This document shows, one piece after another, positions 173 through 24,889 of a DNA stretch of 64,000 nt; the stretch's first letter is position 1; each line of letters begins with the position of its first letter. This DNA comes from Alphaproteobacteria bacterium (lineage in GTDB: Bacteria > Pseudomonadota > Alphaproteobacteria > JAAXGF01), in contig CAUVXB020000002.1 of the NCBI GenBank assembly GCA_963555825.3, forward strand, positions 2,816,001 to 2,880,000, given 5' to 3'. A program made the translations under genes and the position numbers. The notes under the pieces are model-generated. The model was not told the DNA's origin. It searched no databases and saw only the letters and a program-made list of their open reading frames with translations.

Positions 173-429
173 TGGGTCACCAGCAGACTTTAGACGGTGA
201 CGCGGCCGGCGTCTGCTTTGTCGCGGGAACCGGACATCGATCGTCAACACTCTGAATTCCACGCCTGCCACGTCGGCTTTCGAGCGGAGAGCAGACCTCG
301 CGGCGCGGCGCTGAGAATGGCAGAGCAATAATCCCCCACTTAAGCGGCCGGTCGATCCGGCTGCGGCGGACCAAAATGGGACCGCGTATAGCCTTCTGTC
401 AGGGTTGCTCTGACTGGAAGGCGGGGGGG

Positions 430-1929
430 ATGTATCGGGTGGAGTTGTACGCACGGGTTCGGCGGGCGTGTCATGTCGAGGGGATGAGCACCCGCGAGGC
501 CTCGCGGGTGTTTGGTGTAGACCGCAAGACGGTCCGTAAGATGCTGTCGTTCTCGGTGCCGCCAGGGTATCGCCGAAGCGCGCCGCCGAGGCGGCCAAAG
601 CTGGGTCCGTTCACGGGAATCATCGATCGGATCTTGGAAGACGATCGGACCAGCCACCGCAAGCAACGGCACACTGCGAAGCGCATCTTCGACCGCCTCC
701 GGGACGAGTACGGTTTCACGGGCGGCTACACCATCGTGAAGGACTACGTTCGTGAGCAGGGGCTTCGGTCGCGTGAGGTGTTCGTGCCACTCTCCCATTC
801 CCCCGGTCACGCCCAGGCGGACTTCGGCGAAGCGATGGCGGTGATCGGCGGCGCGTTACGGAAGATCCACTTCCTTGCCTTCGACCTTCCCCACAGTGAT
901 GGTTGCTTTGTTGCGGCCTATCCGGCGGAGACGACCGAAGCATTCTGCGATGGCCACAACGCGGCGTTTGCCTTCTTCGGCGGCGTCCCCCGATCCATCC
1001 TGTACGACAACACCAAGCTGGCGGTTGCCCGGATCCTGGGCGATGGGAAGCGGCAGCGAACGCGCGTCTTCACGGAGCTTCAGTCCCACTATCTGTTCGA
1101 GGACAGGTTCGGCCGGCCGGGCAAGGGCAACGACAAGGGCAAGGTCGAGGGACTGGTCGGCTTCATCCGGCGGAACTTCCTGGTCCCCGTCCCGCGTGCC
1201 GAGAGCTTCGCGGCCCTCAACGATGCTCTCGCCGAACAGTGCCGCCGGCGCCAGGCGGCGCGGCTGCGGGGCCACAAGGAGACCATCGGCGAGCGTCTCG
1301 AGCGGGATCGTCAAGTTCTCTTGCCATTGCCGCCTGCTCCCTATGATGCCTGCGATAAGCGCCCTGGACGGGCGAGTTCGCTGTCGCTGGTGCGTTACCG
1401 CAGCAACGACTATTCCGTGCCCGTGGCCTACGGCCACCGTGAGGTGCTCATCCGGGGCTACGTCGATGAGGTGGTGATCAGCTGCGGGGCCGAGGTGATC
1501 GCCCGGCACCGCCGGTCCTACGACAGCGAGGACCTGATCTTCGACCCGCTGCATTACCTGCCCTTGATCGAGCAGAAGATCGGCGCCCTCGACCAGGCCG
1601 CGCCATTGGCGGGCTGGGACCTGCCCGAGGCCTTCATCACTCTGCGGCGGCTCCTCGAAGCTCGTATGGGCAAGGCAGGCAAGCGCGAGTACGTCCAGGT
1701 GCTCCGTCTACTGGAGACCTTCCGGCTCGAGGAGGTCGAGGGTGCGGTCGGCGACGCCCTGCGGCTCGGCGCAATCGGCTTTGATGCGGTGAAGCACCTG
1801 GTACTGTGCCGCATCGAGCGGCGGCCGCCCAGGCTCAACCTCGACGTCTATCCGTATCTGCCGCGCGCCCGGGTCGCGATGACGTCCGCCAAGTCGTACA
1901 TGAGCCTGCTGTCGGGGCTCGGCGCATGA
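430..1929 (+). CDS. istA: IS21 transposase IstA
   Basis: N-terminal HTH, QADFG, LYDN and KGKVE DDE motifs. ATG 430 follows a G-rich RBS. Confidence 0.95.
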   Translation: MYRVELYARVRRACHVEGMSTREASRVFGVDRKTVRKMLSFSVPPGYRRSAPPRRPKLGPFTGIIDRILEDDRTSHRKQRHTAKRIFDRLRDEYGFTGGYTIVKDYVREQGLRSREVFVPLSHSPGHAQADFGEAMAVIGGALRKIHFLAFDLPHSDGCFVAAYPAETTEAFCDGHNAAFAFFGGVPRSILYDNTKLAVARILGDGKRQRTRVFTELQSHYLFEDRFGRPGKGNDKGKVEGLVGFIRRNFLVPVPRAESFAALNDALAEQCRRRQAARLRGHKETIGERLERDRQVLLPLPPAPYDACDKRPGRASSLSLVRYRSNDYSVPVAYGHREVLIRGYVDEVVISCGAEVIARHRRSYDSEDLIFDPLHYLPLIEQKIGALDQAAPLAGWDLPEAFITLRRLLEARMGKAGKREYVQVLRLLETFRLEEVEGAVGDALRLGAIGFDAVKHLVLCRIERRPPRLNLDVYPYLPRARVAMTSAKSYMSLLSGLGA

Positions 1930-2690
1930 CCGACACACCGCAAGTGCTGCTCGCCCACCACCTCAAGACGCTGAAGCTGCCGACCTTCCTGCGCGAGTAC
2001 GACAAGATCGCCCGGCAGTGCGCCTCGGAAGGCGTCGATCACGTCCGCTACCTGTTGAGACTCGCCGAGCTCGAGCTGATCGACCGCGAGCGCCGCATGG
2101 TCGAGCGGCGCATCAAGGCGGCGCGCTTCCCCGTGGTCAAGAGCCTCGACAGCTTCGACTTCAAGGTCATCCCCTCGCTCAACAAGGCGCTGGTCCTGGA
2201 GCTGGCCCGCTGCGAGTACATCGAGCGCCGCGAGAACCTCATCGCGCTCGGCAACAGTGGGACCGGCAAGACCCACATCGCCCTCGGTCTCGGCCTGGCG
2301 GCCTGCCAGAAGGGCCTCTCGGTCGGCTTCATCACCGCCGCCGCGCTGGTCCACGAACTCATCGAGGCCCGCGATGACAAGCAGCTGCTGAGGTTCCAGA
2401 AGAAGCTCGCCACCTACAAGCTTCTGATCGTCGACGAACTCGGCTTCGTGCCGCTGTCGAAGACCGGCGCCGAGCTGTTGTTCGAGGTGTTCAGCCAACG
2501 CTACGAGCGGGGCTCGACCCTGGTCACCACCAATCTGCCCTTCGACGAATGGACCGAGGTGTTCGGCTCCGAGCGCCTCACCGGCGCGCTCCTCGATCGC
2601 CTCACCCACCACGTCAACATCCTCGAGATGAACGGTGACAGCTACAGGCTCAACCAGAGCCGCAGGCGTCAAACCCCGACTGCTAACTGA
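1926..2690 (+). CDS. istB: IS21 ATPase IstB
   Basis: Walker A GNSGTGKT, Walker B LLIVDELG, and LLDRLTHH. Confidence 0.95.
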   Translation: MTDTPQVLLAHHLKTLKLPTFLREYDKIARQCASEGVDHVRYLLRLAELELIDRERRMVERRIKAARFPVVKSLDSFDFKVIPSLNKALVLELARCEYIERRENLIALGNSGTGKTHIALGLGLAACQKGLSVGFITAAALVHELIEARDDKQLLRFQKKLATYKLLIVDELGFVPLSKTGAELLFEVFSQRYERGSTLVTTNLPFDEWTEVFGSERLTGALLDRLTHHVNILEMNGDSYRLNQSRRRQTPTAN

Positions 2691-2881
2691 ACCGACCACC
2701 CAGCCCACGCTTGACCCCGTGGGCCCACAGGTCCCTCCCGCGCGCGCCGCCGCGTCAGCCTGTTGAGGGCACGCCGCGTCGCGCGCGGGGCCCTCCCGTG
2801 GACTACGGGGACAAGCCCGCAGCCGCCAAGCGGTCCCTTCTTACACCGCCGAGGTGGTCCCTTTTTGCTCCGCCATTGACA

Positions 2882-3497: not shown

Positions 3498-3836
3498 ATG
3501 ACCACATCCGACTCGACCGTCGAACGCGGCAGCGGCAACGTCTTCGCGGACCTCGGCCATCCCGAGGCCGATGCCCATCTGCTCAAGGCGGACCTCGTCA
3601 CCCGCATCGACACCATCATCCGCCAGCGCGGCATCACCCAGACCGAGGCGGCACGCCTGCTCGGCCTCACCCAGCCCGACGTGTCGCGGCTGCTCAGGGG
3701 CGACTTCCGCGAGTATTCCCTGGAACGCTTTTTCCGCCTGTTCACCGCCCTCGGCCGCGATATCGACATCGTCATCCGCCAGCCACGCTCGGCCTCCGGC
3801 GGGAAGCTGCGCATCGCGGCAAGCGAGATCGGCTGA
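3498..3836 (+). CDS. XRE-family HTH antitoxin (HigA-like)
   Basis: GSGNVFADLG...TQTEAARLLGLTQPDVSRL...YSLERF motif, directly after the toxin stop. Confidence 0.9.
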   Translation: MTTSDSTVERGSGNVFADLGHPEADAHLLKADLVTRIDTIIRQRGITQTEAARLLGLTQPDVSRLLRGDFREYSLERFFRLFTALGRDIDIVIRQPRSASGGKLRIAASEIG

Positions 3837-4082
3837 CGCCACCCTCGCGTCGCCCCTCGCGGCGGGTCTGCTACGCAGCCGGCCCGCCCTCCGCCGCTCC
3901 GGTTGACCGCCATACCCGATATTCGCTACCCCTCCAGAACTCATCGTGCCGCGTTCGCGAACCGATTGCGCGACACTCTGCATCATGACCCCATTCTTCC
4001 GATGGAGGAGTACGCGAGTGCCCAGATCCGCATCCCCTGACGACTACGAACTCCTGACAGTGTCCGACGCGATCCATCGTGG

Positions 4083-4520
4083 GATGAGTTCGTGGACCAG
4101 CGCGGCGGCGGTGATGAAGCCGACCGAGAGGCCCTTCTGGCAGGCCGCCAGGCCGAGACCGAGGGCGATGTGGGTCTTGCCGGTCCCACTGTTGCCGAGC
4201 GCGATGAGGTTCTCGCGGCGCTCGATGTACTCGCAGCGGGCCAGCTCCAGGACCAGCGCCTTGTTGAGCGAGGGGATGACCTTGAAGTCGAAGCTGTCGA
4301 GGCTCTTGACCACGGGGAAGCGCGCCGCCTTGATGCGCCGCTCGACCATGCGGCGCTCGCGGTCGATCAGCTCGAGCTCGGCGAGTCTCAACAGGTAGCG
4401 GACGTGATCGACGCCTTCCGAGGCGCACTGCCGGGCGATCTTGTCGTACTCGCGCAGGAAGGTCGGCAGCTTCAGCGTCTTGAGGTGGTGGGCGAGCAGC
4501 ACTTGCGGTGTGTCGGTCAT
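4083..4520 (-). pseudogene. istB: Truncated IstB
   Basis: Identical to the copy 1 N-terminus but ends before Walker B. Confidence 0.92.
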
Positions 4521-6016
4521 GCGCCGAGCCCCGACAGCAGGCTCATGTACGACTTGGCGGACGTCATCGCGACCCGGGCGCGCGGCAGATACGGATAGAC
4601 GTCGAGGTTGAGCCTGGGCGGCCGCCGCTCGATGCGGCACAGTACCAGGTGCTTCACCGCATCAAAGCCGATTGCGCCGAGCCGCAGGGCGTCGCCGACC
4701 GCACCCTCGACCTCCTCGAGCCGGAAGGTCTCCAGTAGACGGAGCACCTGGACGTACTCGCGCTTGCCTGCCTTGCCCATACGAGCTTCGAGGAGCCGCC
4801 GCAGAGTGATGAAGGCCTCGGGCAGGTCCCAGCCCGCCAATGGCGCGGCCTGGTCGAGGGCGCCGATCTTCTGCTCGATCAAGGGCAGGTAATGCAGCGG
4901 GTCGAAGATCAGGTCCTCGCTGTCGTAGGACCGGCGGTGCCGGGCGATCACCTCGGCCCCGCAGCTGATCACCACCTCATCGACGTAGCCCCGGATGAGC
5001 ACCTCACGGTGGCCGTAGGCCACGGGCACGGAATAGTCGTTGCTGCGGTAACGCACCAGCGACAGCGAACTCGCCCGTCCAGGGCGCTTATCGCAGGCAT
5101 CATAGGGAGCAGGCGGCAATGGCAAGAGAACTTGACGATCCCGCTCGAGACGCTCGCCGATGGTCTCCTTGTGGCCCCGCAGCCGCGCCGCCTGGCGCCG
5201 GCGGCACTGTTCGGCGAGAGCATCGTTGAGGGCCGCGAAGCTCTCGGCACGCGGGACGGGGACCAGGAAGTTCCGCCGGATGAAGCCGACCAGTCCCTCG
5301 ACCTTGCCCTTGTCGTTGCCCTTGCCCGGCCGGCCGAACCTGTCCTCGAACAGATAGTGGGACTGAAGCTCCGTGAAGACGCGCGTTCGCTGCCGCTTCC
5401 CATCGCCCAGGATCCGGGCAACCGCCAGCTTGGTGTTGTCGTACAGGATGGATCGGGGGACGCCGCCGAAGAAGGCAAACGCCGCGTTGTGGCCATCGCA
5501 GAATGCTTCGGTCGTCTCCGCCGGATAGGCCGCAACAAAGCAACCATCACTGTGGGGAAGGTCGAAGGCAAGGAAGTGGATCTTCCGTAACGCGCCGCCG
5601 ATCACCGCCATCGCTTCGCCGAAGTCCGCCTGGGCGTGACCGGGGGAATGGGAGAGTGGCACGAACACCTCACGCGACCGAAGCCCCTGCTCACGAACGT
5701 AGTCCTTCACGATGGTGTAGCCGCCCGTGAAACCGTACTCGTCCCGGAGGCGGTCGAAGATGCGCTTCGCAGTGTGCCGTTGCTTGCGGTGGCTGGTCCG
5801 ATCGTCTTCCAAGATCCGATCGATGATTCCCGTGAACGGACCCAGCTTTGGCCGCCTCGGCGGCGCGCTTCGGCGATACCCTGGCGGCACCGAGAACGAC
5901 AGCATCTTACGGACCGTCTTGCGGTCTACACCAAACACCCGCGAGGCCTCGCGGGTGCTCATCCCCTCGACATGACACGCCCGCCGAACCCGTGCGTACA
6001 ACTCCACCCGATACAT
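4517..6016 (-). CDS. istA: IS21 transposase IstA
   Basis: Protein identical to copy 1. Confidence 0.95.
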   Translation of the reverse strand: MYRVELYARVRRACHVEGMSTREASRVFGVDRKTVRKMLSFSVPPGYRRSAPPRRPKLGPFTGIIDRILEDDRTSHRKQRHTAKRIFDRLRDEYGFTGGYTIVKDYVREQGLRSREVFVPLSHSPGHAQADFGEAMAVIGGALRKIHFLAFDLPHSDGCFVAAYPAETTEAFCDGHNAAFAFFGGVPRSILYDNTKLAVARILGDGKRQRTRVFTELQSHYLFEDRFGRPGKGNDKGKVEGLVGFIRRNFLVPVPRAESFAALNDALAEQCRRRQAARLRGHKETIGERLERDRQVLLPLPPAPYDACDKRPGRASSLSLVRYRSNDYSVPVAYGHREVLIRGYVDEVVISCGAEVIARHRRSYDSEDLIFDPLHYLPLIEQKIGALDQAAPLAGWDLPEAFITLRRLLEARMGKAGKREYVQVLRLLETFRLEEVEGAVGDALRLGAIGFDAVKHLVLCRIERRPPRLNLDVYPYLPRARVAMTSAKSYMSLLSGLGA

Positions 6017-6148
6017 CCCCCCCGCCTTCCAGTCAGAGCAACCCTGACAGAAGGCTATACGCGGTCCCATTTTGGTCCGCCGCAGCCGGATCGACCGGCC
6101 GCTTCAGTGGGGGATTATTGCTCTGCCGTTCTCAGGTGTTTCTTTCTT

Positions 6149-11849: not shown

Positions 11850-12189
11850 TCCGGCCTGGTCGCGCTGGCGACGAGATCGCGATTGCGTCGTTCATCGGAC
11901 GAAGGGAGTCCCCGACACGACAAGACCAAGGTGCGTCGGGTGTGAGAACCAACCGCCGAAGGGCGTCCCCATCCCGCTTCCTGACCGGTCAAGTGCTCGT
12001 GCATTGAAAGCCGTTGTGCAACCGGCATTTAGCCCGAGCGGCGCTTGAGCGGCAGCGCCCGCCGCGCCACCTGTGGAAACAGTCCCCGAACCGCCGCGCG
12101 GCTTCCGAGCGGCACTAAAGATCCTATGGGGCGAAATGGAGACCGGCGCTACGGTGCCGTTCTTGTGAACCCTCATCAGGAGATAGAAA

Positions 12190-13380
12190 ATGCCAGCAAG
12201 AAACAAAATCACCGCCGTACCGACCGACGTAGAACATAGAACGCTGTAAGTCGCGATCGAGATCAGCCGGAAGAGCTGGGTGGTTGGGCTCAAGAGCCCG
12301 GCGGGTGAGCGTATCGGCCTTCACCCGCTTGGCGCCGCAGATGTCGAGGGCCTCAAGACTCTAATTGAGCATCACCGGGCCAAGGCCAAACGGGCACTCG
12401 GCCGTGAGATGCGTGTTCTGTGCTGCTACGAGGCCGGGTACGAGGGGTTCTGGCTGACGCGTTGGCTGGACCAGGCCATGTCTGTCGAGATGATCGTGTT
12501 GGATCCTGCGAGCCTCCTGGTGAACCGGAAGGCAAAGCAGCGGAAGACGGACCGGATCGACGCGAAGAAGATGGTCCGTGCATTGCTGGCACACGACCGG
12601 GGCGACGCTGCCGTGTTGAGCCGGGTGCGGGTGCCAAGTGTGGACGAGGAGGACCGCAAGCGCCTGCTTCGGGAGCGCCAGCGGCTGGTGAAGGAGCGGA
12701 CATCGCTGACGAACTCGATCAAGGCGCTCCTGAAGCTGCATGGCCTCTTCGACTTGGAGCCTCGCTCCAAAGGGTTCGGGGCGAAGTTCGCCGAAGTGAA
12801 GACCGCATATGGATCGTCATTCCCGCCGCGAGCCCGGCAGGAGATCCTGCGGCTTGCGGAGCGCTTGGCACTGGTGGAGCGGCAGATCGCGCAGGTCGAG
12901 GCCGAGCGCAACGCAGTTGCCCGCCAAGGCGCGGAGCTTTCGCCGATGGAGGTGTCCGAGAATAGCGAAGCGCAGGCGGCGGTAAAGATTGCGACGCTGA
13001 CCCGGTTGAAGGGGATCGGCGCGAACGACGCAACCCTGCTGACCCATGAAATCTTCTGCCGCGGGTTCCGCAACCGCCGGGAGCTCGCGAGCTGGGTCGG
13101 CATGACGCCAACCCCCTGGGCGAGCGGTGTCATGGAACGCGATCAGGGGATCGGCCGCGACGGTCCCGCCTGGATCCGGGCCCAGCTCATTCAAATGGCA
13201 TGGCGCTGGTTGCGCCATCAGCCCGAAAGTGCGCTTTGCAAGTGGTTTGAAGAGCGTACTGCAGGAGCCCGGGGACGGATCCGCCGGGTGATGATCGTGG
13301 CGCTCGCCCGCAAACTTCTCATCGCCCTCTGGCGCTTCTGTGAGACCGGTCTCGTGCCAACGGGTGCACGCTGCGCCTGA
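12190..13380 (+). pseudogene. IS110 recombinase with in-frame TAA at codon 20
   Basis: ATG 12190 gives MPARNKITAVPTDVEHRTL*VAIEISRKSW, in frame with the track ORF at 12280. CYEAG, KTDRID, WASG and ALARKL motifs are present. TAA 12247-12249 aligns with the Tyr in element B's AIYAALELSK. Confidence 0.88.
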
Positions 13381-13419
13381 TCGATACGGGATCTACTAAT
13401 CCAGTCCGGCTGGATGTGG

Positions 13420-13690
13420 CCGAGGCTGGGCCGGGTGGATGTGTGACCGTGTGCTTCCTTGGCTGAAAGATGCCGCACTATAGAGGGGTCCCATCCTCCG
13501 GAACGCCACGCCCGCAGCAAGCGGGATCAGGGTTAGGACCCGGCTCCAAGTCGGGTGACAACCGGATACAAGGTGGGTTCGGTGTTGATCGCCGGCCGAT
13601 GTGGAGAAGCGTTCCGCGCCTGGAACATTGAACAAAGAAAGGAGTGATCGTGACAATGCATGAACCGTAGAAAACCACCCTTGACTTGGA
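13420..13690 (+). ncRNA. Putative bridge/seek RNA of IS110 element A
   Basis: Shares scaffold blocks with element B's non-coding region. The variable segment GCACTATAGA (13475-13484) matches the left junction GCACTAAAGA (12112-12121) at 9/10. Boundaries are approximate. Confidence 0.72.
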
Positions 13691-15923: not shown

Positions 15924-16171
15924 GACGGGGCGGTAAAAAGTTGTTGGCCGATGGCGTGCTTGTACAGGTCTTTGCGGTTCGGTGAAGAATATTTGCCTGT
16001 CTCCGCGTTGCTGGTGGATAAAACCTGATATTACCTACCCTTGGCTTCTCCTTGGCTTCGTTTTTTATGGTGCGATTGCCGCGCAGCGTCGGATATTGAG
16101 GCCGAGGGCACGCAGATTGACCACGTAGCGCATGGCCGGCATGCCGCGAATGCGTAGGTGAGCCAGGTTCA

Positions 16172-17546
16172 GAGCTATTGTCAAAAGTTGTGTATGGGCT
16201 GATCATGCGGCGGCGCGATCCTGGCGTTCTCCATCTACGAATTTGACGCCGCGAATGATCTCGGCGAGATGGTTCGATCCATCGAGTTTTCTCCATTTTC
16301 TCTGAGCGCACTGGCATAGTTTGAAGACCATGGCCATCGCCGTCTTGCGCGACAGGCAGCCCTTGGTCCGGTAGGTGCGCAGACGAACCGTGGCGAACGT
16401 GCTCTCGATGGGGTTGGTCGTGCGTACATGCTTCCAGTGCTCGGCGGGGAAGTCGTAGAACGTCAGCAGGACGTCGCGGTCCTTGGCCAGGCAGGCCGCG
16501 GCCTTGTCGTACTTCGGCCCGTAGGCTTCCAGGAAGAAGTCGAAGGCGCTCTCGGCATCCTTCCTGGTTTCGGCCATCCAGATGTCTTGCAGGCGCCCCT
16601 TGGCTTTCTTTTGCAGACCCTTGGGCAGCTTGTTCAAGACGTTGCCCGTCTTGTGAACCCAGCAGCGTTGCTCGCGGGCGCCTGGGTAGACTTGGCGGAG
16701 CGCCTTCCAGAAGCCGAGCGCGCCGTCGCCGAGCGCCAGTTGCGGACCCATTTCAAGGCCGCGCCGCTTGAGATCGAGCAGAACTTCGAGCCAGGACTGC
16801 TCACTTTCGCGATAGCCGTCGGCGATGGCGATCAGTTCCTTCTGTCCCTTGTCCGTGGCCCCGACGATCACCAGGATGCACTGCTTCTCTTCCTCCATGC
16901 GGGCGCTGAAATAGATGCCGTCCACCCAGAAATAGACGTAGCGCTTGGCCGTGAGGTCGCGCCGTTGCCAGCGCTCCGCCTCAACCCCCCAGACCTCTTT
17001 CAGCCGGGTGATCGTGGAGGCCGAAAGCCCCGGCGCGGAGCTCCCCAGGAGCGCCGCCAAGGCTTCCCCGAAGTCGCCGGTGGAAATGCCCTTCAGATAC
17101 AGCCATGGCAAAAGGTCTTCCAGGCTCTTGGCGCGGCGCAGATAGCGCGGCAGGATCGCCGACGTGAAGCGGATGGCGCCGTCCCCCCGGTCCCGCACAC
17201 GGGGTTGGCGCACGCTCACCGGGCCGATCCCGGTCTGGATGAAGCGTTCCGGCAGATATCCATTGCGGACAACCCGGCGGCGGCCGGCGGCGTCAACAAG
17301 CGCCGCATGGCTACCCAAAAACACGGAGACCTCGGCCTCAACGGCTTGGGCCAACAACTCGCGAGCTCCAGCTTGTAGGACTTCCGTCAACGGATCTTTC
17401 TGAAAATCAGATGGGTTTTGAAAAGCAACAACGGTATTCTCTTTCATGGCGTATCCTTCCTTGGCTTAGCTCAAGTGGTGACATCAACAATCACCAGGAT
17501 ACGCCGCCTTCATTTCAACGCCGTACACAAGATTCGGTTATAGCTC
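16172..17546 (-). mobile_element. IS256-family element, copy 1 (complete, 9-bp TSD)
   Basis: IRs GAGCTATTGTCAAAAGTTGTGTA / GAGCTATAACCGAATCTTGTGTA, with direct repeat CCAGGTTCA at 16163-16171 and 17547-17555. Confidence 0.96.
16203..17447 (-). CDS. IS256 (Mutator-type) transposase
   Basis: RNGY, FWVDG, GDGALG, QRCWVH and RTTNPIES motifs. Confidence 0.95.
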   Translation of the reverse strand: MKENTVVAFQNPSDFQKDPLTEVLQAGARELLAQAVEAEVSVFLGSHAALVDAAGRRRVVRNGYLPERFIQTGIGPVSVRQPRVRDRGDGAIRFTSAILPRYLRRAKSLEDLLPWLYLKGISTGDFGEALAALLGSSAPGLSASTITRLKEVWGVEAERWQRRDLTAKRYVYFWVDGIYFSARMEEEKQCILVIVGATDKGQKELIAIADGYRESEQSWLEVLLDLKRRGLEMGPQLALGDGALGFWKALRQVYPGAREQRCWVHKTGNVLNKLPKGLQKKAKGRLQDIWMAETRKDAESAFDFFLEAYGPKYDKAAACLAKDRDVLLTFYDFPAEHWKHVRTTNPIESTFATVRLRTYRTKGCLSRKTAMAMVFKLCQCAQRKWRKLDGSNHLAEIIRGVKFVDGERQDRAAA

Positions 17547-19108
17547 CCAGGTTCATCTGGTACTTTAATCGCGACATGGTCGCTTCTATGCCGGCCCGCC
17601 ATCTGTAGACGTTGCGGAAGGCATCGCTTTGTTCATAAAGCCGGCGCTTTTGGTTGGCAGCCCTGGCCGGGGTATATTGAAAGCGGGAAAATTGGCCGTC
17701 ACGCTTGGCCGCCTGCACGGGACATCGCAGTATATCGGGACATTTTTGGCAGATGGAGAGGTCGAAACGGGCCTGCAGCTTGGCTTTGGCGAGCGAGGCT
17801 GAAACCGGTTCGACGTTATTGGGACAGCGCAAGACCAAGCCTTCTTCGTTGAGAGTGAAATCCTCCAACGTCAACCGTCCCGAGACGGCGCCTTTCGGCG
17901 GTCGTGCGGGCGCCACGAGATTGATGTTCTGTTCGCGCGTCAGAGCCATGTTGTCACTGGAACCGTAATGTGAATCACCCAGCATCACCGCCGGCGTCAG
18001 CGCGCGCTCGCTCAGATCATCCAGCGCATCGGCTAAGCGATGGCCGTCATGCACCGTCATCTTGTGGACCTCCACGTGGGTGATGAGGTCCGGTGTCGCG
18101 GCAACCGCCTCGTTACTGACATCTTCACAATAGGTTTCGACGATCTGCGCCATGTATCCTTGACCCTTGTGCGCGTTGTAGCTCGCGTCCGGGTCGGCCG
18201 GATTGCCGACGGTATCGCACGGCACATCCTTTGGATCTCGAATCGCGGCGCGCGTTGCGTCACGATCGCCATACTCATCATCAACGATCTCGAACTGATC
18301 GCGCAGAACCCTCTCCAGGATCGCAAAACTGAAAAGCTTTGCCGCCGCCGTGTCACGGAATTGCAGCACCAGGGCTAGGAGATACTGACCCGCTTCGCCG
18401 AGGCGCCGTTTTGAAACACTCGGCGCCGTATTCGCGAACGCGCCATTACCCTCGCGATCGACATAGCGGCGGATCACCTCCTTGCTGATCTGCTCGTGCA
18501 GACCGGGATGATATCGCTCAAGCTCACGGGCAAACTTCGAGATGCTCTCAACAACGATACCAAGTCGTGTCAGCGCCCGCATTGCCGAACGAAGGGCCGT
18601 CGAATCCATGCGTTGGTGGCTGGTATCGACAGAGAACCCCTGCACCAGCCGATCCGTCAAACACCGGAACAGCAATTCATCGAGACCTTGTTCGATAAAC
18701 AGACGGCGATAGTTGCGCAGGGTTTTCTCACAGAAATAGCTGTCCGCTTCGCTGCGCACGTCCAAGGCATAGTGCCACGCCATATTGAAGGCCAGGGCCT
18801 CGACGGTCTCTGCATCGCTCAGATCGTGCAGCTGCTGCAAAAGCAAGACCCCGATGACAACGTGTAGATCCTTCGATGGTCGGCCCATGCGTTCATCAAG
18901 GTGACGGCAAAGATCGTCAACCGGAAGTTCGACAAGCAGATGGTTCCGAAAAACCCCGGCCCAGGATTGCTCCATCAGGCGCCGACGTTTGTCCCCGAAA
19001 TCGGACCAGCGATCAAACAATTCCCCAGTCCGTCGGTCGCGTAAAGTAAACATGCACAATTATAATCCAGCCGACTCTCATGAGGAATCGACTTTTTACC
19101 GCCCCGTC

Positions 19109-20472
19109 GAATCTTGTGTACGGCGTTGAAATGAAGGCGGCGTATCCTGGTGATTGTTGATGTCACCACTTGAGCTAAGCCAAGGAAGGATACGCCATGA
19201 AAGAGAATACCGTTGTTGCTTTTCAAAACCCATCTGATTTTCAGAAAGATCCGTTGACGGAAGTCCTACAAGCTGGAGCTCGCGAGTTGTTGGCCCAAGC
19301 CGTTGAGGCCGAGGTCTCCGTGTTTTTGGGTAGCCATGCGGCGCTTGTTGACGCCGCCGGCCGCCGCCGGGTTGTCCGCAATGGATATCTGCCGGAACGC
19401 TTCATCCAGACCGGGATCGGCCCGGTGAGCGTGCGCCAACCCCGTGTGCGGGACCGGGGGGACGGCGCCATCCGCTTCACGTCGGCGATCCTGCCGCGCT
19501 ATCTGCGCCGCGCCAAGAGCCTGGAAGACCTTTTGCCATGGCTGTATCTGAAGGGCATTTCCACCGGCGACTTCGGGGAAGCCTTGGCGGCGCTCCTGGG
19601 GAGCTCCGCGCCGGGGCTTTCGGCCTCCACGATCACCCGGCTGAAAGAGGTCTGGGGGGTTGAGGCGGAGCGCTGGCAACGGCGCGACCTCACGGCCAAG
19701 CGCTACGTCTATTTCTGGGTGGACGGCATCTATTTCAGCGCCCGCATGGAGGAAGAGAAGCAGTGCATCCTGGTGATCGTCGGGGCCACGGACAAGGGAC
19801 AGAAGGAACTGATCGCCATCGCCGACGGCTATCGCGAAAGTGAGCAGTCCTGGCTCGAAGTTCTGCTCGATCTCAAGCGGCGCGGCCTTGAAATGGGTCC
19901 GCAACTGGCGCTCGGCGACGGCGCGCTCGGCTTCTGGAAGGCGCTCCGCCAAGTCTACCCAGGCGCCCGCGAGCAACGCTGCTGGGTTCACAAGACGGGC
20001 AACGTCTTGAACAAGCTGCCCAAGGGTCTGCAAAAGAAAGCCAAGGGGCGCCTGCAAGACATCTGGATGGCCGAAACCAGGAAGGATGCCGAGAGCGCCT
20101 TCGACTTCTTCCTGGAAGCCTACGGGCCGAAGTACGACAAGGCCGCGGCCTGCCTGGCCAAGGACCGCGACGTCCTGCTGACGTTCTACGACTTCCCCGC
20201 CGAGCACTGGAAGCATGTACGCACGACCAACCCCATCGAGAGCACGTTCGCCACGGTTCGTCTGCGCACCTACCGGACCAAGGGCTGCCTGTCGCGCAAG
20301 ACGGCGATGGCCATGGTCTTCAAACTATGCCAGTGCGCTCAGAGAAAATGGAGAAAACTCGATGGATCGAACCATCTCGCCGAGATCATTCGCGGCGTCA
20401 AATTCGTAGATGGAGAACGCCAGGATCGCGCCGCCGCATGATCAGCCCATACACAACTTTTGACAATAGCTC
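19109..20472 (+). mobile_element. IS256-family element, copy 2 (first 11 bp of left IR missing)
   Basis: Begins GAATCTTGTGTA (IRL nt 12 onward) flush against the IS1182-like end. The right IR ends at 20472. Confidence 0.93.
19197..20441 (+). CDS. IS256 transposase
   Basis: Protein identical to 16203-17447. Confidence 0.95.
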   Translation: MKENTVVAFQNPSDFQKDPLTEVLQAGARELLAQAVEAEVSVFLGSHAALVDAAGRRRVVRNGYLPERFIQTGIGPVSVRQPRVRDRGDGAIRFTSAILPRYLRRAKSLEDLLPWLYLKGISTGDFGEALAALLGSSAPGLSASTITRLKEVWGVEAERWQRRDLTAKRYVYFWVDGIYFSARMEEEKQCILVIVGATDKGQKELIAIADGYRESEQSWLEVLLDLKRRGLEMGPQLALGDGALGFWKALRQVYPGAREQRCWVHKTGNVLNKLPKGLQKKAKGRLQDIWMAETRKDAESAFDFFLEAYGPKYDKAAACLAKDRDVLLTFYDFPAEHWKHVRTTNPIESTFATVRLRTYRTKGCLSRKTAMAMVFKLCQCAQRKWRKLDGSNHLAEIIRGVKFVDGERQDRAAA

Positions 20473-20648
20473 CGTTCCTGACCGCGATACGCGAACAATA
20501 CGGAATAATCGAACGGCACCACATGGCGTAATGCCTGAACCAGTACAGCCGGAAGCCGTGGCGTGTCTTCCGCCGAAATAACCTGCGCAATTTGGCCATG
20601 CCAACTGCGGGTATCCAATTTTTGGATCGTGTTTGGGCCATTAGTCAT
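20473..20648 (-). pseudogene. N-terminal fragment of a probable LuxR-type regulator, cut by IS256
   Basis: MTNGPN...WHGQIAQVI...ALRHVVPFDYSVLFAYRGQER resembles the sensor N-terminus of LuxR-HTH regulators. Confidence 0.55.
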
Positions 20649-20865
20649 GGCTGGCGGTAATATCCCTTCTCCAGTGTCAATGGCGGAGCAAAAAGGGACC
20701 ACCTCGGCGGTGTAAGAAGGGACCGCTTGGCGGCTGCGGGCTTGTCCCCGTAGTCCACGGGAGGGCCCCGCGCGCGACGCGGCGTGCCCTCAACAGGCTG
20801 ACGCGGCGGCGCGCGCGGGAGGGACCTGTGGGCCCACGGGGTCAAGCGTGGGCTGGGTGGTCGGT

Positions 20866-21630
20866 TCAGTTAGCAGTCGGGGTTTGACGCCTGCGGCTCT
20901 GGTTGAGCCTGTAGCTGTCACCGTTCATCTCGAGGATGTTGACGTGGTGGGTGAGGCGATCGAGGAGCGCGCCGGTGAGGCGCTCGGAGCCGAACACCTC
21001 GGTCCATTCGTCGAAGGGCAGATTGGTGGTGACCAGGGTCGAGCCCCGCTCGTAGCGTTGGCTGAACACCTCGAACAACAGCTCGGCGCCGGTCTTCGAC
21101 AGCGGCACGAAGCCGAGTTCGTCGACGATCAGAAGCTTGTAGGTGGCGAGCTTCTTCTGGAACCTCAGCAGCTGCTTGTCATCGCGGGCCTCGATGAGTT
21201 CGTGGACCAGCGCGGCGGCGGTGATGAAGCCGACCGAGAGGCCCTTCTGGCAGGCCGCCAGGCCGAGACCGAGGGCGATGTGGGTCTTGCCGGTCCCACT
21301 GTTGCCGAGCGCGATGAGGTTCTCGCGGCGCTCGATGTACTCGCAGCGGGCCAGCTCCAGGACCAGCGCCTTGTTGAGCGAGGGGATGACCTTGAAGTCG
21401 AAGCTGTCGAGGCTCTTGACCACGGGGAAGCGCGCCGCCTTGATGCGCCGCTCGACCATGCGGCGCTCGCGGTCGATCAGCTCGAGCTCGGCGAGTCTCA
21501 ACAGGTAGCGGACGTGATCGACGCCTTCCGAGGCGCACTGCCGGGCGATCTTGTCGTACTCGCGCAGGAAGGTCGGCAGCTTCAGCGTCTTGAGGTGGTG
21601 GGCGAGCAGCACTTGCGGTGTGTCGGTCAT
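20866..21630 (-). CDS. istB: IS21 ATPase IstB
   Basis: Protein identical to copy 1. Confidence 0.95.
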   Translation of the reverse strand: MTDTPQVLLAHHLKTLKLPTFLREYDKIARQCASEGVDHVRYLLRLAELELIDRERRMVERRIKAARFPVVKSLDSFDFKVIPSLNKALVLELARCEYIERRENLIALGNSGTGKTHIALGLGLAACQKGLSVGFITAAALVHELIEARDDKQLLRFQKKLATYKLLIVDELGFVPLSKTGAELLFEVFSQRYERGSTLVTTNLPFDEWTEVFGSERLTGALLDRLTHHVNILEMNGDSYRLNQSRRRQTPTAN

Positions 21631-22289
21631 GCGCCGAGCCCCGACAGCAGGCTCATGTACGACTTGGCGGACGTCATCGCGACCCGGGCGCGCGGCAGAT
21701 ACGGATAGACGTCGAGGTTGAGCCTGGGCGGCCGCCGCTCGATGCGGCACAGTACCAGGTGCTTCACCGCATCAAAGCCGATTGCGCCGAGCCGCAGGGC
21801 GTCGCCGACCGCACCCTCGACCTCCTCGAGCCGGAAGGTCTCCAGTAGACGGAGCACCTGGACGTACTCGCGCTTGCCTGCCTTGCCCATACGAGCTTCG
21901 AGGAGCCGCCGCAGAGTGATGAAGGCCTCGGGCAGGTCCCAGCCCGCCAATGGCGCGGCCTGGTCGAGGGCGCCGATCTTCTGCTCGATCAAGGGCAGGT
22001 AATGCAGCGGGTCGAAGATCAGGTCCTCGCTGTCGTAGGACCGGCGGTGCCGGGCGATCACCTCGGCCCCGCAGCTGATCACCACCTCATCGACGTAGCC
22101 CCGGATGAGCACCTCACGGTGGCCGTAGGCCACGGGCACGGAATAGTCGTTGCTGCGGTAACGCACCAGCGACAGCGAACTCGCCCGTCCAGGGCGCTTA
22201 TCGCAGGCATCATAGGGAGCAGGCGGCAATGGCAAGAGAACTTGACGATCCCGCTCGAGACGCTCGCCGATGGTCTCCTTATATGAGGC

Positions 22290-22595
22290 GTTTGCTGTCA
22301 AGGTGGATTTAATCTACGCCACATGATCGTCTCTTCCATTGGTTATGGCTTTGTATCCAGGGCGGGTCTTGCGATGAGTTCCGTGTTTCGTGCGAGTGAT
22401 CGCATCACCTTATATCCGGCAGCTCCGATCCGGCTTGCCACAATGCTGTATACATGGACCATCACAGGACGGGGATGGGACTAATCTTGTGGACGGCACC
22501 TTCGCCAAGGAGACATGCAGTCACACATCCAACCTGCCAACAAGCGTTCCCATCGGGGAATGAAGCCCGTTAGAACGCTGAGCTGATCCGCAGTC
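22290..22595 (-). ncRNA. Putative bridge/seek RNA of IS110 element B
   Basis: Contains GUCUCCUU (22507-22514) and CCACAAG (22486-22492) matching both halves of the target, plus AGCAU (22443-22447) and AUAUAAG (22409-22415) matching the element ends. Boundaries are approximate. Confidence 0.82.
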
Positions 22596-23729
22596 CTATT
22601 TGACGACAGCACCCACCGGGATCAGCCCGGTTTCCAGATACCGCCAAAGCGCGATCGCCAGTTTGCGGGCCAGGGCGACGATCATGACGCGCCTGATGCG
22701 CCCCTTCTGACCTTGGGTGCGGTCATGGAACCACTGGGTCAGAGCGCTATCGGGTTGATGGCGGACCCAAAGCCATGCGGCTTCGATCATGGCAACCCGT
22801 GCCAGCCGATTGCCCGCCTTGGAGATGCCTTGGCTGCGGCGCCCGTCGCCGCTGTCATAGGCACTGGGCGTGATCCCGATATAGCTTGCCACCTGTCGGC
22901 GATTGGCGAACTGGCGATAATAGACTTCCCGTGCGAGCGTCGTGGATAAGGCCGGGCCGAGGCCCTTTAAGCGCAGCAGCTGGTGACGCTTGCTTTCCGT
23001 GGCCACACACGGTGTCGGCGCTTGATCACGCTCACGCTCGACCTCGACGATCTGCGCTTGGACCTGGGCCAGTCTCGCGATCTCCCGCGCGATCTCGCGG
23101 CCGAGACGGTCCGGCAGGGGTCGGCCGTCTCCGGTGACCAGCGCCGCCGGTGTCAAGGTCTTGTAGCGCGCCTTGACATTGATGCCGCGAATGCCCTGAC
23201 CGAATAGCAGACCCTTGATCCGGTTGATGTGGGCGGTTCGCTCGCGGACCAATCGGTCACGTTCCCGATGAGAGCGGCGAAGGTCCTCCTCCGCGACGCT
23301 CGGAATCACCACCATGGAGCAGACATGACGCTCGCCGCGGCACCAGGCGATCAGCGTATGAAGAATATTCTCGACATCGATGCGGTCGGTCTTCACCCGC
23401 CGCGCCCGGCGGTTGACCCGCAAGCTGGCCGGCTCCATGACCAGACACTCGATGCCGCGCTGCTCGAGGAACCGCGCCAACCAGAAGCCGTCGTAGCCGG
23501 CCTCGTAGCACAGCGTTATCGTCGGCGTTCGACCCGTCACCTTGACCACCCGGTCCCGCGCCGCGTCCAGCTTGGCCATCAGTCCTTCAGCGTCGCCGCC
23601 CTTGATCGGATGCAAGCTCGGATTGCCCCGCCCCGGAGCCTGGATCGCCAAAAGCCAGCTGTTCTTGCTCAACTCCAGTGCCGCATAAATAGCGTGTTCA
23701 TTGGAGGTCGATACCGGAAACTGTGCCAT
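22596..23729 (-). CDS. IS110 recombinase/transposase
   Basis: ALELSK, CYEAG, KTDRID, YDSG, ISKAGN and ALARKL motifs. Confidence 0.95.
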   Translation of the reverse strand: MAQFPVSTSNEHAIYAALELSKNSWLLAIQAPGRGNPSLHPIKGGDAEGLMAKLDAARDRVVKVTGRTPTITLCYEAGYDGFWLARFLEQRGIECLVMEPASLRVNRRARRVKTDRIDVENILHTLIAWCRGERHVCSMVVIPSVAEEDLRRSHRERDRLVRERTAHINRIKGLLFGQGIRGINVKARYKTLTPAALVTGDGRPLPDRLGREIAREIARLAQVQAQIVEVERERDQAPTPCVATESKRHQLLRLKGLGPALSTTLAREVYYRQFANRRQVASYIGITPSAYDSGDGRRSQGISKAGNRLARVAMIEAAWLWVRHQPDSALTQWFHDRTQGQKGRIRRVMIVALARKLAIALWRYLETGLIPVGAVVK

Positions 23730-24889
23730 CGTGTCGCTCCTTCTGATCGAGGTTGAAATAATCGAAGGAGCTTGAGGCTGCGTCCTTCAGCCTCATAGCA
23801 TCTTGTGGCCCCGCAGCCGCGCCGCCTGGCGCCGGCGGCACTGTTCGGCGAGAGCATCGTTGAGGGCCGCGAAGCTCTCGGCACGCGGGACGGGGACCAG
23901 GAAGTTCCGCCGGATGAAGCCGACCAGTCCCTCGACCTTGCCCTTGTCGTTGCCCTTGCCCGGCCGGCCGAACCTGTCCTCGAACAGATAGTGGGACTGA
24001 AGCTCCGTGAAGACGCGCGTTCGCTGCCGCTTCCCATCGCCCAGGATCCGGGCAACCGCCAGCTTGGTGTTGTCGTACAGGATGGATCGGGGGACGCCGC
24101 CGAAGAAGGCAAACGCCGCGTTGTGGCCATCGCAGAATGCTTCGGTCGTCTCCGCCGGATAGGCCGCAACAAAGCAACCATCACTGTGGGGAAGGTCGAA
24201 GGCAAGGAAGTGGATCTTCCGTAACGCGCCGCCGATCACCGCCATCGCTTCGCCGAAGTCCGCCTGGGCGTGACCGGGGGAATGGGAGAGTGGCACGAAC
24301 ACCTCACGCGACCGAAGCCCCTGCTCACGAACGTAGTCCTTCACGATGGTGTAGCCGCCCGTGAAACCGTACTCGTCCCGGAGGCGGTCGAAGATGCGCT
24401 TCGCAGTGTGCCGTTGCTTGCGGTGGCTGGTCCGATCGTCTTCCAAGATCCGATCGATGATTCCCGTGAACGGACCCAGCTTTGGCCGCCTCGGCGGCGC
24501 GCTTCGGCGATACCCTGGCGGCACCGAGAACGACAGCATCTTACGGACCGTCTTGCGGTCTACACCAAACACCCGCGAGGCCTCGCGGGTGCTCATCCCC
24601 TCGACATGACACGCCCGCCGAACCCGTGCGTACAACTCCACCCGATACATCCCCCCCGCCTTCCAGTCAGAGCAACCCTGACAGAAGGCTATACGCGGTC
24701 CCATTTTGGTCCGCCGCAGCCGGATCGACCGGCCGCTTCAGTGGGGGATTATTGCTCTGCCGTTCTCACCTGCCGTCGTAACAAAATCCTGCCTTGGAGC
24801 GGCCCATTGTCACGAATAGCCGATTTCGGCCGTTCGTCTCGACACAAAAAACGCACTAAATCAATGACTTAGATTTTCCATACCAGACC

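Follow-up and report, generated by a model that had tools for sequence, protein, structure and literature searches.

An IS110-family element with a predicted two-module guide RNA in the istA gene of an abundant IS21-family element

Introduction

What directs one insertion sequence (IS) into the transposase gene of another? The question is raised by the 64,000-nucleotide (nt) stretch of DNA analysed here (the window; Alphaproteobacteria bacterium, contig CAUVXB020000002.1), which has three copies of a 2.57-kb IS21-family element, the third of them interrupted within its istA gene by an element of the IS110 family. A preliminary description of the window had proposed that the 3' non-coding end of this insert gives rise to an RNA programmed against istA. 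We put at about 90% the probability that the insert is an active IS1111-style element with a two-module bridge or seek RNA in its right end, the guides of which name both the target and the element's own ends. This reading draws on exact junctions, on specificity of site and orientation, on covariation of the guides with flanks and with element ends, and on a fold supported by covariation. All coordinates are those of the window, and the features are collected in Table 1.

RNAs of this kind were published in 2024 as bridge RNAs (IS621; PMC11208160, PMC11208158) and as seekRNAs (ISEc11, ISPa11, ISKpn4 and ISEc21; PMC11187229), and for 93.0% of IS1111 elements a bridge RNA has been predicted in the right end (PMC11208160). 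The mechanism itself is not new, and RNA-guided insertion of an IS into another's transposase gene has already been reported for ISEc21. Specific to the present case are the target, IS21 istA, the size of the target reservoir, and a series of used and unused near-cognate sites within one genome.

Results

Boundaries and ends of the element

The arms of the interrupted IS21 copy, 20675-22280 and 23802-24768, are 100% complementary to 1276-2881 and 312-1278 of copy 1, respectively. The two arms share exactly 1276-1278, AAG, and the insert is therefore 22281-23801; AAG is single in the empty site and flanks the insert on both sides. Copy 3 is thus split at a 3-nt AAG core, as the preliminary description had it, and the empty site survives, as also claimed there, in IS21 copies 1 and 2: with up to one mismatch allowed, the 14-mer GGCCACAAGGAGAC occurs exactly twice in the window, where 0 occurrences were expected in 100 shuffles. 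In copy 1 istA (376-1929; 517 amino acids) has the Pfam domains rve at residues 142-250 and Mu-transpos_C_2 at residues 318-390, and istB has PF01695.

The insert consists of a left end of 72 nt (23730-23801), a transposase gene, and a right non-coding end of 315 nt (22281-22595). An 8-bp subterminal repeat pair, TATGAGGC and GCCTCATA, lies 4 nt in from each end, counting AAG on the right; on the left the repeat is preceded by the extension ATGC (23801-23798). An excised circle would join the ends as ...CATATAAG/ATGCT, giving the predicted junction sequence ...GCCTCATATAAG/ATGCTATGAGGC..., in which 8 nt (TAAGATGC) separate the repeats. A plain target-site duplication by a DDE-type element was considered as a source of the repeated AAG, and is ruled out by the specificity of site and orientation described below and by the protein family.

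Both family domains are present in the transposase, PF01548 at 1.1e-09 (38.7 bits, cut-off 29) and PF02371 at 1.6e-16 (60.9 bits, cut-off 21.3). Residues 218-369 match the PDB sequences of ISCro4 (9t56; 9.7e-09) and IS621 (8wt6; 6.8e-08), and the serine motif GITPSAYDSGDG aligns with GLTPRRYESGSS of ISCro4; the conserved motif of the IS110-family C-terminal domain is G--P----SG (PMC11187229). Acidic residues are seen as E in CYEAGYDG and as two D in KTDRIDVE. The position of the first catalytic Asp, equated by eye, is occupied by E (ALELSK, residues 18-22, about 23664-23678 on the minus strand), upstream of the Pfam match, which begins at residue 63. The pattern A-[I/L/V/F]-E-L-[S/A]-[K/R/Q/N] recurs in 58/58 unique N-termini of relatives that reach that far (loci L022-L101), and this clade may use Glu in place of the first Asp.

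The insert is, as proposed, an intact element of the IS110 family, laid out in IS1111 style with little sequence on its left, subterminal repeats that are short, and an extended non-coding region on its right. Relatives are named in databases only as 'IS110 family transposase'. Protein names yielded no ISfinder identity, the best named plasmid matches being 'ISRel9 family' (44.3%) and ISPa25 (28.8%). No match to the element was found on plasmids by megablast. Among 40 related genomes, many of them so fragmented that absence is not shown, there was no near-identical copy; three had partial or distant matches of 66-88% identity.

Guide segments and their fold

The bridge or seek RNA is predicted to derive from 22281-22595 (minus strand), in which two modules can be recognised. 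In the target-binding module, GUCUCCUU at 22514-22507 complements AAGGAGAC 8/8, and the match lengthens to AUGUCUCCUU (22516-22507). The 8/8 complement, the 8/9 match to the left half-site after a short stem (22494-22486), and a second loop with AGCAU and AUAUAAG that matches the element's own ends had all been claimed beforehand; each was located, and the segments of the second loop track the ends in relatives (see below).

On this arrangement the 5' side of the target loop, AUGUCUCCUU, would pair with the top strand of the right half-site and the 3' side, GUCCACAAG, with the bottom strand of the left half-site, the two specifying roughly GTCCACAAG/GAGACAT and overlapping at AAG. AGCAU and GGAUAUAAG in the donor loop would specify the abutted ends of the element itself. 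By extension from IS621, ISEc11 and ISEc21, the element would be excised as a circle with a promoter formed at its junction, the transposase and the RNA would form a complex, and strands would be exchanged at AAG by means of the serine.

RNAalifold applied to 26 aligned sequences of relatives gives the target outer stem and two donor hairpins (inner, 22439-22418; next, 22404-22391), in all 26 pairs, 13 of them with compensatory changes. We defined a 32-pair structure as this prediction plus the inner target hairpin and the outer donor stem. Of its 831 cells, 93.9% are paired, a share that drops to 32.7-45.0% if the 3' partners are displaced by one to three columns; 15/32 pairs change on both sides, and none of 500 shuffles reaches the observed paired fraction or covariation score. 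The target outer stem (consensus helix 2), which is also given by the single-sequence fold, has eight pairs, of which six are changed on both sides, and 97.1% of its cells are paired. The donor outer stem is the weakest helix, with 80.8% paired and 4/6 pairs changed on both sides. The preliminary description had looked to a fold built from homologues as a check, and the consensus obtained, supported by covariation, leaves the guides unpaired.

Copies in the genome follow one site rule

The genome (6.04 Mb, two contigs) has 11 full copies of the element, eight at 100% identity, two at 99.93% and one at 99.87%, as well as several fragments. All 11 lie in one orientation, their left flank being CA[C/T]AAG and their right flank AAG-GAGAC, so that the flanks of the other copies, singled out beforehand as informative, obey a common rule, CA[C/T]AAG/GAGAC. 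Seven occupy IS21 istA, and the contexts of the other four are unrelated. A further three copies, truncated, are in IS21, and one more truncated copy is in a hairpin-like sequence.

At the IS21 site the left guide matches 8/9 and the right guide 8/10. At non-IS21 sites 1-3 the right guide matches 10/10 (AAGGAGACAT) and the left guide 6-7/9, and at the fourth, in a serine recombinase gene, the left guide matches 9/9 and the right 8/10. Across the non-IS21 sites, weaker pairing in one half-site is offset by full pairing in the other. Because the positions unmatched by IS21 are matched at other used sites, those positions are read.

Sites on offer greatly outnumber those used. The 14-mer is unoccupied in 69 places in the genome, and about 10/79 IS21 sites are occupied. 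Besides the exact IS21 site there are 10 more CA[C/T]AAGGAGAC sites, including four diverged IS21 copies and a recombinase paralogue; on our reading of the site lists, the central 12-mer CCACAAGGAGAC is confined to IS21 and the occupied recombinase site. The serine-recombinase paralogue (...ATCGTCCATAAGGAGACGAGC..., on contig C2) carries the site with a single mismatch (CAT for CAC) and stands empty, whereas the perfect copy has an insert.

Guides change with flanks and ends in relatives

Relatives were sought in one genome per species, which gave 405 loci, and the best 80 were kept (proteins 49-89% identical). Their right non-coding ends have a common scaffold in which the guides differ as the flanks do. 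In L022, L025 and L030 the guide AUGUCCGCUU matches the right flank AAGCGGACAT 10/10; in L027 ACGUCCGCUU matches AAGCGGACGT 10/10 and GUGGUAAAG matches GGGGTAAAG; in L028 ACGGUAGCUU matches AAGCTGCCGT 9/10. The guide GAGGUAGAG in L024 answers to the flank AGGGTAGAG, and GAGAACCC in L055 and L056 to GGGTTCTC. In each of the eight closest elements, the corresponding 10 nt agree with that element's right flank at 8-10 of 10 positions.

These likenesses were assessed in two ways. In a free-position scan of 36 unique sites, taken from the 44 loci with both ends called (the rest of the 80 have no recognisable end or flank), a score of at least 16, which is that of the present element, was reached by 17/36 cognate and 9/1134 non-cognate combinations, and a score of at least 17 by 6/36 and 0/1134. 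In a fixed-column test of 18 of the 26 aligned sequences (L031-L035, L037, L038 and L051 were dropped for their different loop length), matches beyond the core averaged 3.88 for cognate combinations against 2.40, out of a possible 7, for the right guide, the corresponding means for the left guide being 4.38 and 2.94 out of 6; on each side none of 20,000 label shuffles reached the observed sums. L039 and its kin are one base out of register in this test, which lowers the cognate mean. Chance likeness of the guides to the target is ruled out by the two tests together. Since the relatives are kin the counts overstate independence; there are still at least six distinct types of guide and target.

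The donor guides behave similarly. In 27 of 44 unique elements all four nucleotides at the position of GCAU are complementary to the first 4 nt of that element's left end, and in the other 17 three of the four are; the variable left-end base (ATGC, ATCC or ATTC) is matched in 39. The left-donor guide equals the right end in 25/39 unique elements, four of them with AUAUGAG on both sides, and in 4/39 it is out of register under the fixed-spacing rule. Elements with GGAUACGAG were seen by eye to end on the right in ...CATACGAG.

One earlier proposal found no support in this comparison. Both guides had been described as extending past the core into the recombinant junctions, in the manner of handshake pairing, by AU (2 nt) and G (1 nt), and neither extension tracks the flanks in relatives. 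The AU cannot covary because every left end begins with AT, and the L039 subgroup has UG there; in the place of the G after AUAUAAG, L022 has U against a flank C and L030 G against a flank C. Handshake guides in IS621 continue the top-strand-complementary guides and, once strands have been exchanged, pair with the other DNA (PMC11208158), so that the proposal had extended the opposite guides to those of IS621. In the present family the top-strand-complementary guides run on, past the core, into the GG of the inner hairpins, which is invariant.

Where the relatives land

The closest relatives lie in a hairpin repeat, ATGTCCGCTTT-N7-AAAGCGGACAT. L039 and L045 are in IS3-family transposase genes (HTH_21 and rve), to which the rest of their subgroup is assigned by matching flanks; L056 is in an IS5-family gene (DUF772 and DDE_Tnp_1), with L055 and L057 placed by matching flanks; and L037 is in a tyrosine integrase gene. 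L075 adjoins a Y1 transposase gene and L062 an rve_3 transposase. Pfam was also run on 10 frames beside insertion sites, drawn from 32 frames of at least 70 amino acids listed in 18 of the 30 loci screened. One is a transposase and three are ordinary genes above the cut-off (a solute-binding protein, a DNA methylase and a DNA ligase); of the remainder, one has sub-cut-off matches only and five have no family. Insertion into mobile-element genes is therefore recurrent, not the rule.

Two relatives, L038 (about 3650-3850) and L051 (about 3670-3860), have two tandem target-binding modules before one donor module. In L038, the right end of which is damaged, it is the first module whose left guide better suits the left flank of the element, with 7 contiguous bases; in L051 the second module fits, the first looking decayed.

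Transcription

A consensus scan found no sigma-70-like promoter in the integrated element. The -35-like TTGACA near the right end has counterparts in the relatives, TTGACA or TTGACT standing 18 nt from the right end in 37/41 unique elements. A circle junction would give TTGACA-17-GATGCT, a predicted arrangement that fits the junction promoter of these families (PMC11187229). As the element is co-oriented with istA, read-through from IS21 is also possible.

Contigs from two metatranscriptomes (X9, X16) cover the element from end to end, and the empty IS21 form is covered too. In run X18, which shares its study with the probable source, the single contig on the element is 22273-22631, the non-coding end, and nothing covers the transposase part; in X17 cover falls only on parts conserved among relatives, and these two runs cannot rank expression. 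One RNA-library contig has a further left flank absent from the genome (loose end at 23811).

In X17, a marine-sediment RNA library, short contigs 95-99% alike pile up on 22371-22484, the conserved donor module, at a word depth of 1119-1642, with no contigs on the adjacent variable target module. This fits many relatives with a common donor module, contig depth being a poor measure.

IS21 as a landing pad

The IS21-family element is present in about 80 copies genome-wide, many of them interrupted by other elements. Its istA carries the central 12 bases, CCACAAGGAGAC, of the sequence specified by the guides, and at this copy number IS21 is by far the commonest landing pad. The claim that a multicopy transposase gene serves as landing pad, with two empty targets nearby, is borne out on a larger scale than first seen, with 69 empty targets in the genome. 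The stronger wording, that the RNA is programmed against IS21, overstates the case: the right guide matches it 8/10 and the left 8/9, 4/11 full copies are elsewhere, other sites reach 9/9 on the left and 10/10 on the right, and the closest relatives aim at a hairpin repeat. IS21 is a near-cognate and very abundant landing pad, not a perfectly programmed target.

Most of the IS21-borne copies could descend from one insertion that multiplied with IS21, either as an IS21::insert composite mobilised by IstA and IstB in trans or through recombination or gene conversion, in which case 'predation' on IS21 would be much rarer than the copy count implies. In a comparison of single-nucleotide polymorphisms, the 50 uninterrupted IS21 copies and six paired occupied copies (of seven) nearly all have the same master sequence. 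Shared in this way by occupied and unoccupied copies, it gives no sign of separate events, and polymorphisms do not distinguish independent insertions from composite spread. Both the near-identity of the inserts (99.87-100%) and the presence of about 50 intact IS21 copies that could supply IstA and IstB in trans agree with this account. Against it, the element moves alone into at least four non-IS21 sites under the same rule, 69 identical empty targets are on offer, an RNA-library contig has a left flank that is not in the genome, and a 4.1-kb composite would need to transpose as efficiently as the 2.57-kb IS21. We regard composite spread as a real possibility, though the less probable origin of most of these copies.

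The same data bear on whether the guide RNA was selected for IS21 istA as its true cognate, the four other sites being off-targets. That 7/11 full copies and three truncated copies are in IS21, that the exact 12-mer CCACAAGGAGAC is limited to IS21 and the occupied recombinase site, and that the right guide has UC where the closest relatives have CG, a two-base difference required by the IS21 site, all speak for such selection. We nevertheless think it unlikely, since IS21 mismatches the guides at left -8 and right +9 and +10, positions that are read, three other used sites matching right +9/+10 and one matching left -8. Moreover, one of the truncated copies is in a hairpin repeat of the relatives' target type, and only about 10/79 IS21 sites are occupied.

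Apart from these insertions, the genome records a very recent burst of one IS21-family element, with 50 uninterrupted copies at above 99% identity, almost all of which share one master sequence.

Discussion

Weighing the guide-RNA reading

Several observations weigh against a guide RNA of the IS1111 kind. Folded as a single sequence, the whole non-coding end (323 nt) is no stabler than shuffles (z = 0.79), and neither are the modules folded separately (z = -0.82 and +1.28); when the module is folded as a single sequence, GUCU of the right guide is engaged in pairs with AGAU. Rfam (E up to 1) returned no family for 21500-24500, and whether Rfam 15 includes bridge-RNA families is not known. The UGU at the core position of the right-donor guide pairs poorly with AAG. 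In relatives, the variable left-end base is unmatched in 5/44 (L034, L043, L046, L052 and L061) and the left-donor guide is one base off the right end in 10/39. The RNA-library data are contigs without strand, ends or level, and the libraries could hold DNA.

Further departures concern the family. The transposase, at 377 amino acids, exceeds the 330-350 amino acids of IS1111-family transposases, and the 8-bp subterminal repeat is below the usual 11-13 bp (PMC11187229), though within the quoted range of 7-17 bp (PMC11208160). IS1111 terminal extensions measure 7 (or 6) bp at the left end and 3 bp at the right end (PMC11187229), so that 10 or 9 nt are reported between the repeats where we find 8.

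That the transposase protein alone picks the target, the matches of RNA and target being coincidental or a matter of shared ancestry, would sit well with single-sequence folds of ordinary stability; it is very improbable, given that the guides change with the flanks across relatives whose proteins are 49-89% identical and that the RNA of family members is required and reprogrammable in experiments (PMC11187229, PMC11208160).

Comparison with known systems

The two-module guide RNA proposed here has its closest parallel of target in ISEc21, which is also seekRNA-guided, has its natural target in another IS's transposase gene (in the IS3 family, the codons around the second D of DDE), and inserts in a single orientation with no further duplication (PMC11187229). 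It differs in that its non-coding region is upstream of the transposase gene, its guide order is reversed, and its target is IS3 and not IS21 istA; ISEc21 has been tested experimentally, whereas the present element was analysed by computation.

In layout the element resembles ISEc11, ISPa11, ISKpn4 and ISPst6, which have a downstream non-coding region, subterminal inverted repeats, a top-strand-complementary segment 5' of the bottom-strand match, and an overlap of the two at the insertion point (PMC11187229). The order of guides in IS1111 seekRNAs, with the top-strand complement first (PMC11187229), is that found here. Their circle-junction promoter is reported (PMC11187229), and here it is predicted; the 377 amino acids, the 8-bp repeat and the 8 nt between repeats (7+3 reported) set the present element apart. 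Their targets are a linear site, attC and REP sequences (PMC11187229), against IS21 istA and others here.

IS621 resembles the element in having a target loop and a donor loop, one guide per strand with overlap at a short core, and a recombinase with a RuvC-like domain and a Tnp domain with a catalytic serine (PMC11208160, PMC11208158). Unlike the present element, it encodes its RNA in the left end, places its guides in the opposite order and has a 2-nt core, CT; it also has handshake guides, of which a covarying equivalent was not seen here, and protein similarity is confined to the C-terminal domain (E 6.8e-08).

Other members of the group are also directed to mobile elements: by the titles in the reference list of PMC11208160, IS1383 targets the inverted repeats of IS1384, and IS4321/IS5075 those of Tn21-family transposons. 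Those targets are terminal inverted repeats, whereas here the target is transposase codons 299-303. A full-text literature search, judged by titles and the starts of abstracts, returned no IS110/IS1111-type insertion into IS21 istA, although the supplementary target logos (more than 300 IS) of PMC11187229 and PMC11208160 may list one.

What the locus offers

One guide RNA, 11 near-identical copies, five used sites and about 80 near-perfect sites, 69 of them empty, with a dozen or so unused one-mismatch sites in the same genome, make up a natural data set. It shows which guide positions tolerate mismatches and how the left and right halves compensate for one another, and could be used for off-target rules and for the engineering of bridge recombinases. 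IS21 istA also joins the short list of mobile-element genes that serve as landing pads, and the relatives have been retargeted many times, to hairpin repeats and to IS3, IS5 and integrase genes.

A bolder suggestion is that the clade consists of specialised parasites of mobile elements, their guides repeatedly retargeted to recombinase genes, and that here the element acts as a brake on the IS21 burst while hitch-hiking on the mobility and transcription of IS21. The targets that prompt it are IS21 istA and a large serine recombinase gene here, and IS3-family, IS5-family and rve_3 transposases and a tyrosine integrase in relatives; if it were true, about one IS21 copy in eight would have been knocked out. 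We consider it doubtful.

Table 1. Coordinates of the features in the window, with the four non-IS21 sites elsewhere in the genome (a slash marks the insertion point).
Feature	Position	Strand	Remarks
Whole IS110-family element	22281..23801	-	1521 bp; IS21 arms end at 22280 and 23802
AAG overlap (core), left junction	23802..23804	-	Target left half ...GGCCACAAG
AAG overlap, right junction	22278..22280	-	Followed by target right half GAGAC
Left subterminal inverted repeat TATGAGGC	23790..23797	-	Reverse complement of 22289-22282
Right subterminal inverted repeat GCCUCAUA	22282..22289	-	Followed by T and the AAG overlap
Transposase gene	22596..23729	-	377 amino acids; DEDD/RuvC-like N-terminal domain and Tnp C-terminal domain; YDSGDG serine motif
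Target-binding module (predicted)	22473..22530	-	Outer stem GGAUGUGUGACU with AGUCCCAUCC around internal loop
Right-target guide AUGUCUCCUU	22507..22516	-	Complementary to top strand AAGGAGACAT
Inner hairpin GGCGAAGGUGCC between target guides	22495..22506	-	GG/CC pairs kept in 94.2% of cells
Left-target guide GUCCACAAG	22486..22494	-	Top-strand sense; matches GGCCACAAG 8/9
Donor-binding module (predicted)	22380..22458	-	Outer stem UCCAUG with CACGGA; consensus helices 4-6
Right-donor guide AGCAU (22447-22443)	22440..22447	-	Complementary to left end ATGCT; then UGU at core position
Left-donor guide GGAUAUAAG	22409..22417	-	Same sense as right end ...CAUAUAAG; AUAUAAG at 22415-22409
-35-like TTGACA	22296..22301	-	18 nt from right end
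IS21 copy 1	311-2881	+	istA at 376-1929
IS21 copy 2	4083-6135	-	Truncated
IS21 copy 3	20675..24768	-	Interrupted by the element; istA and inserted transposase gene co-oriented
Unoccupied target, IS21 copy 1	1270..1283	+	istA codons 299-303 (GHKET), between rve and C-terminal domains
Unoccupied target, IS21 copy 2	5163..5176	-	
Non-IS21 site 1			...CAGCCATAAG/GAGACATACC; intergenic
Non-IS21 site 2			...GCATCACAAG/GAGACATCGA
Non-IS21 site 3			...GGGTCACAAG/GAGACATTGG
Non-IS21 site 4			...ATCGTCCACAAG/GAGACGAGC; inside large serine recombinase gene (Resolvase, Recombinase, Zn_ribbon_recom domains)

Other elements in the window

A second IS1111-style element at 12121-13690 (plus strand) has the same RNA scaffold with other guides: its left flank reads GGCACTAAAG/ATCCTATGG, its target loop GUGUGCUUCCUU and GCACUAUAG, and its donor loop GGGAUCAGGG and GGAUACAAG. 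The predicted ...ATACAAG end is not seen after the -35-like TTGACT (13684-13689), possibly a sign of damage to the right end. Another element is present in two 1373-nt copies, at 16164-17536 and 19108-20480, which are inverted and 100% complementary to each other. A long array with a 15-nt period at 50261-50893, in 28 overlapping registers of a 228-nt unit of 61-78% identity, is probably a repetitive coding region.

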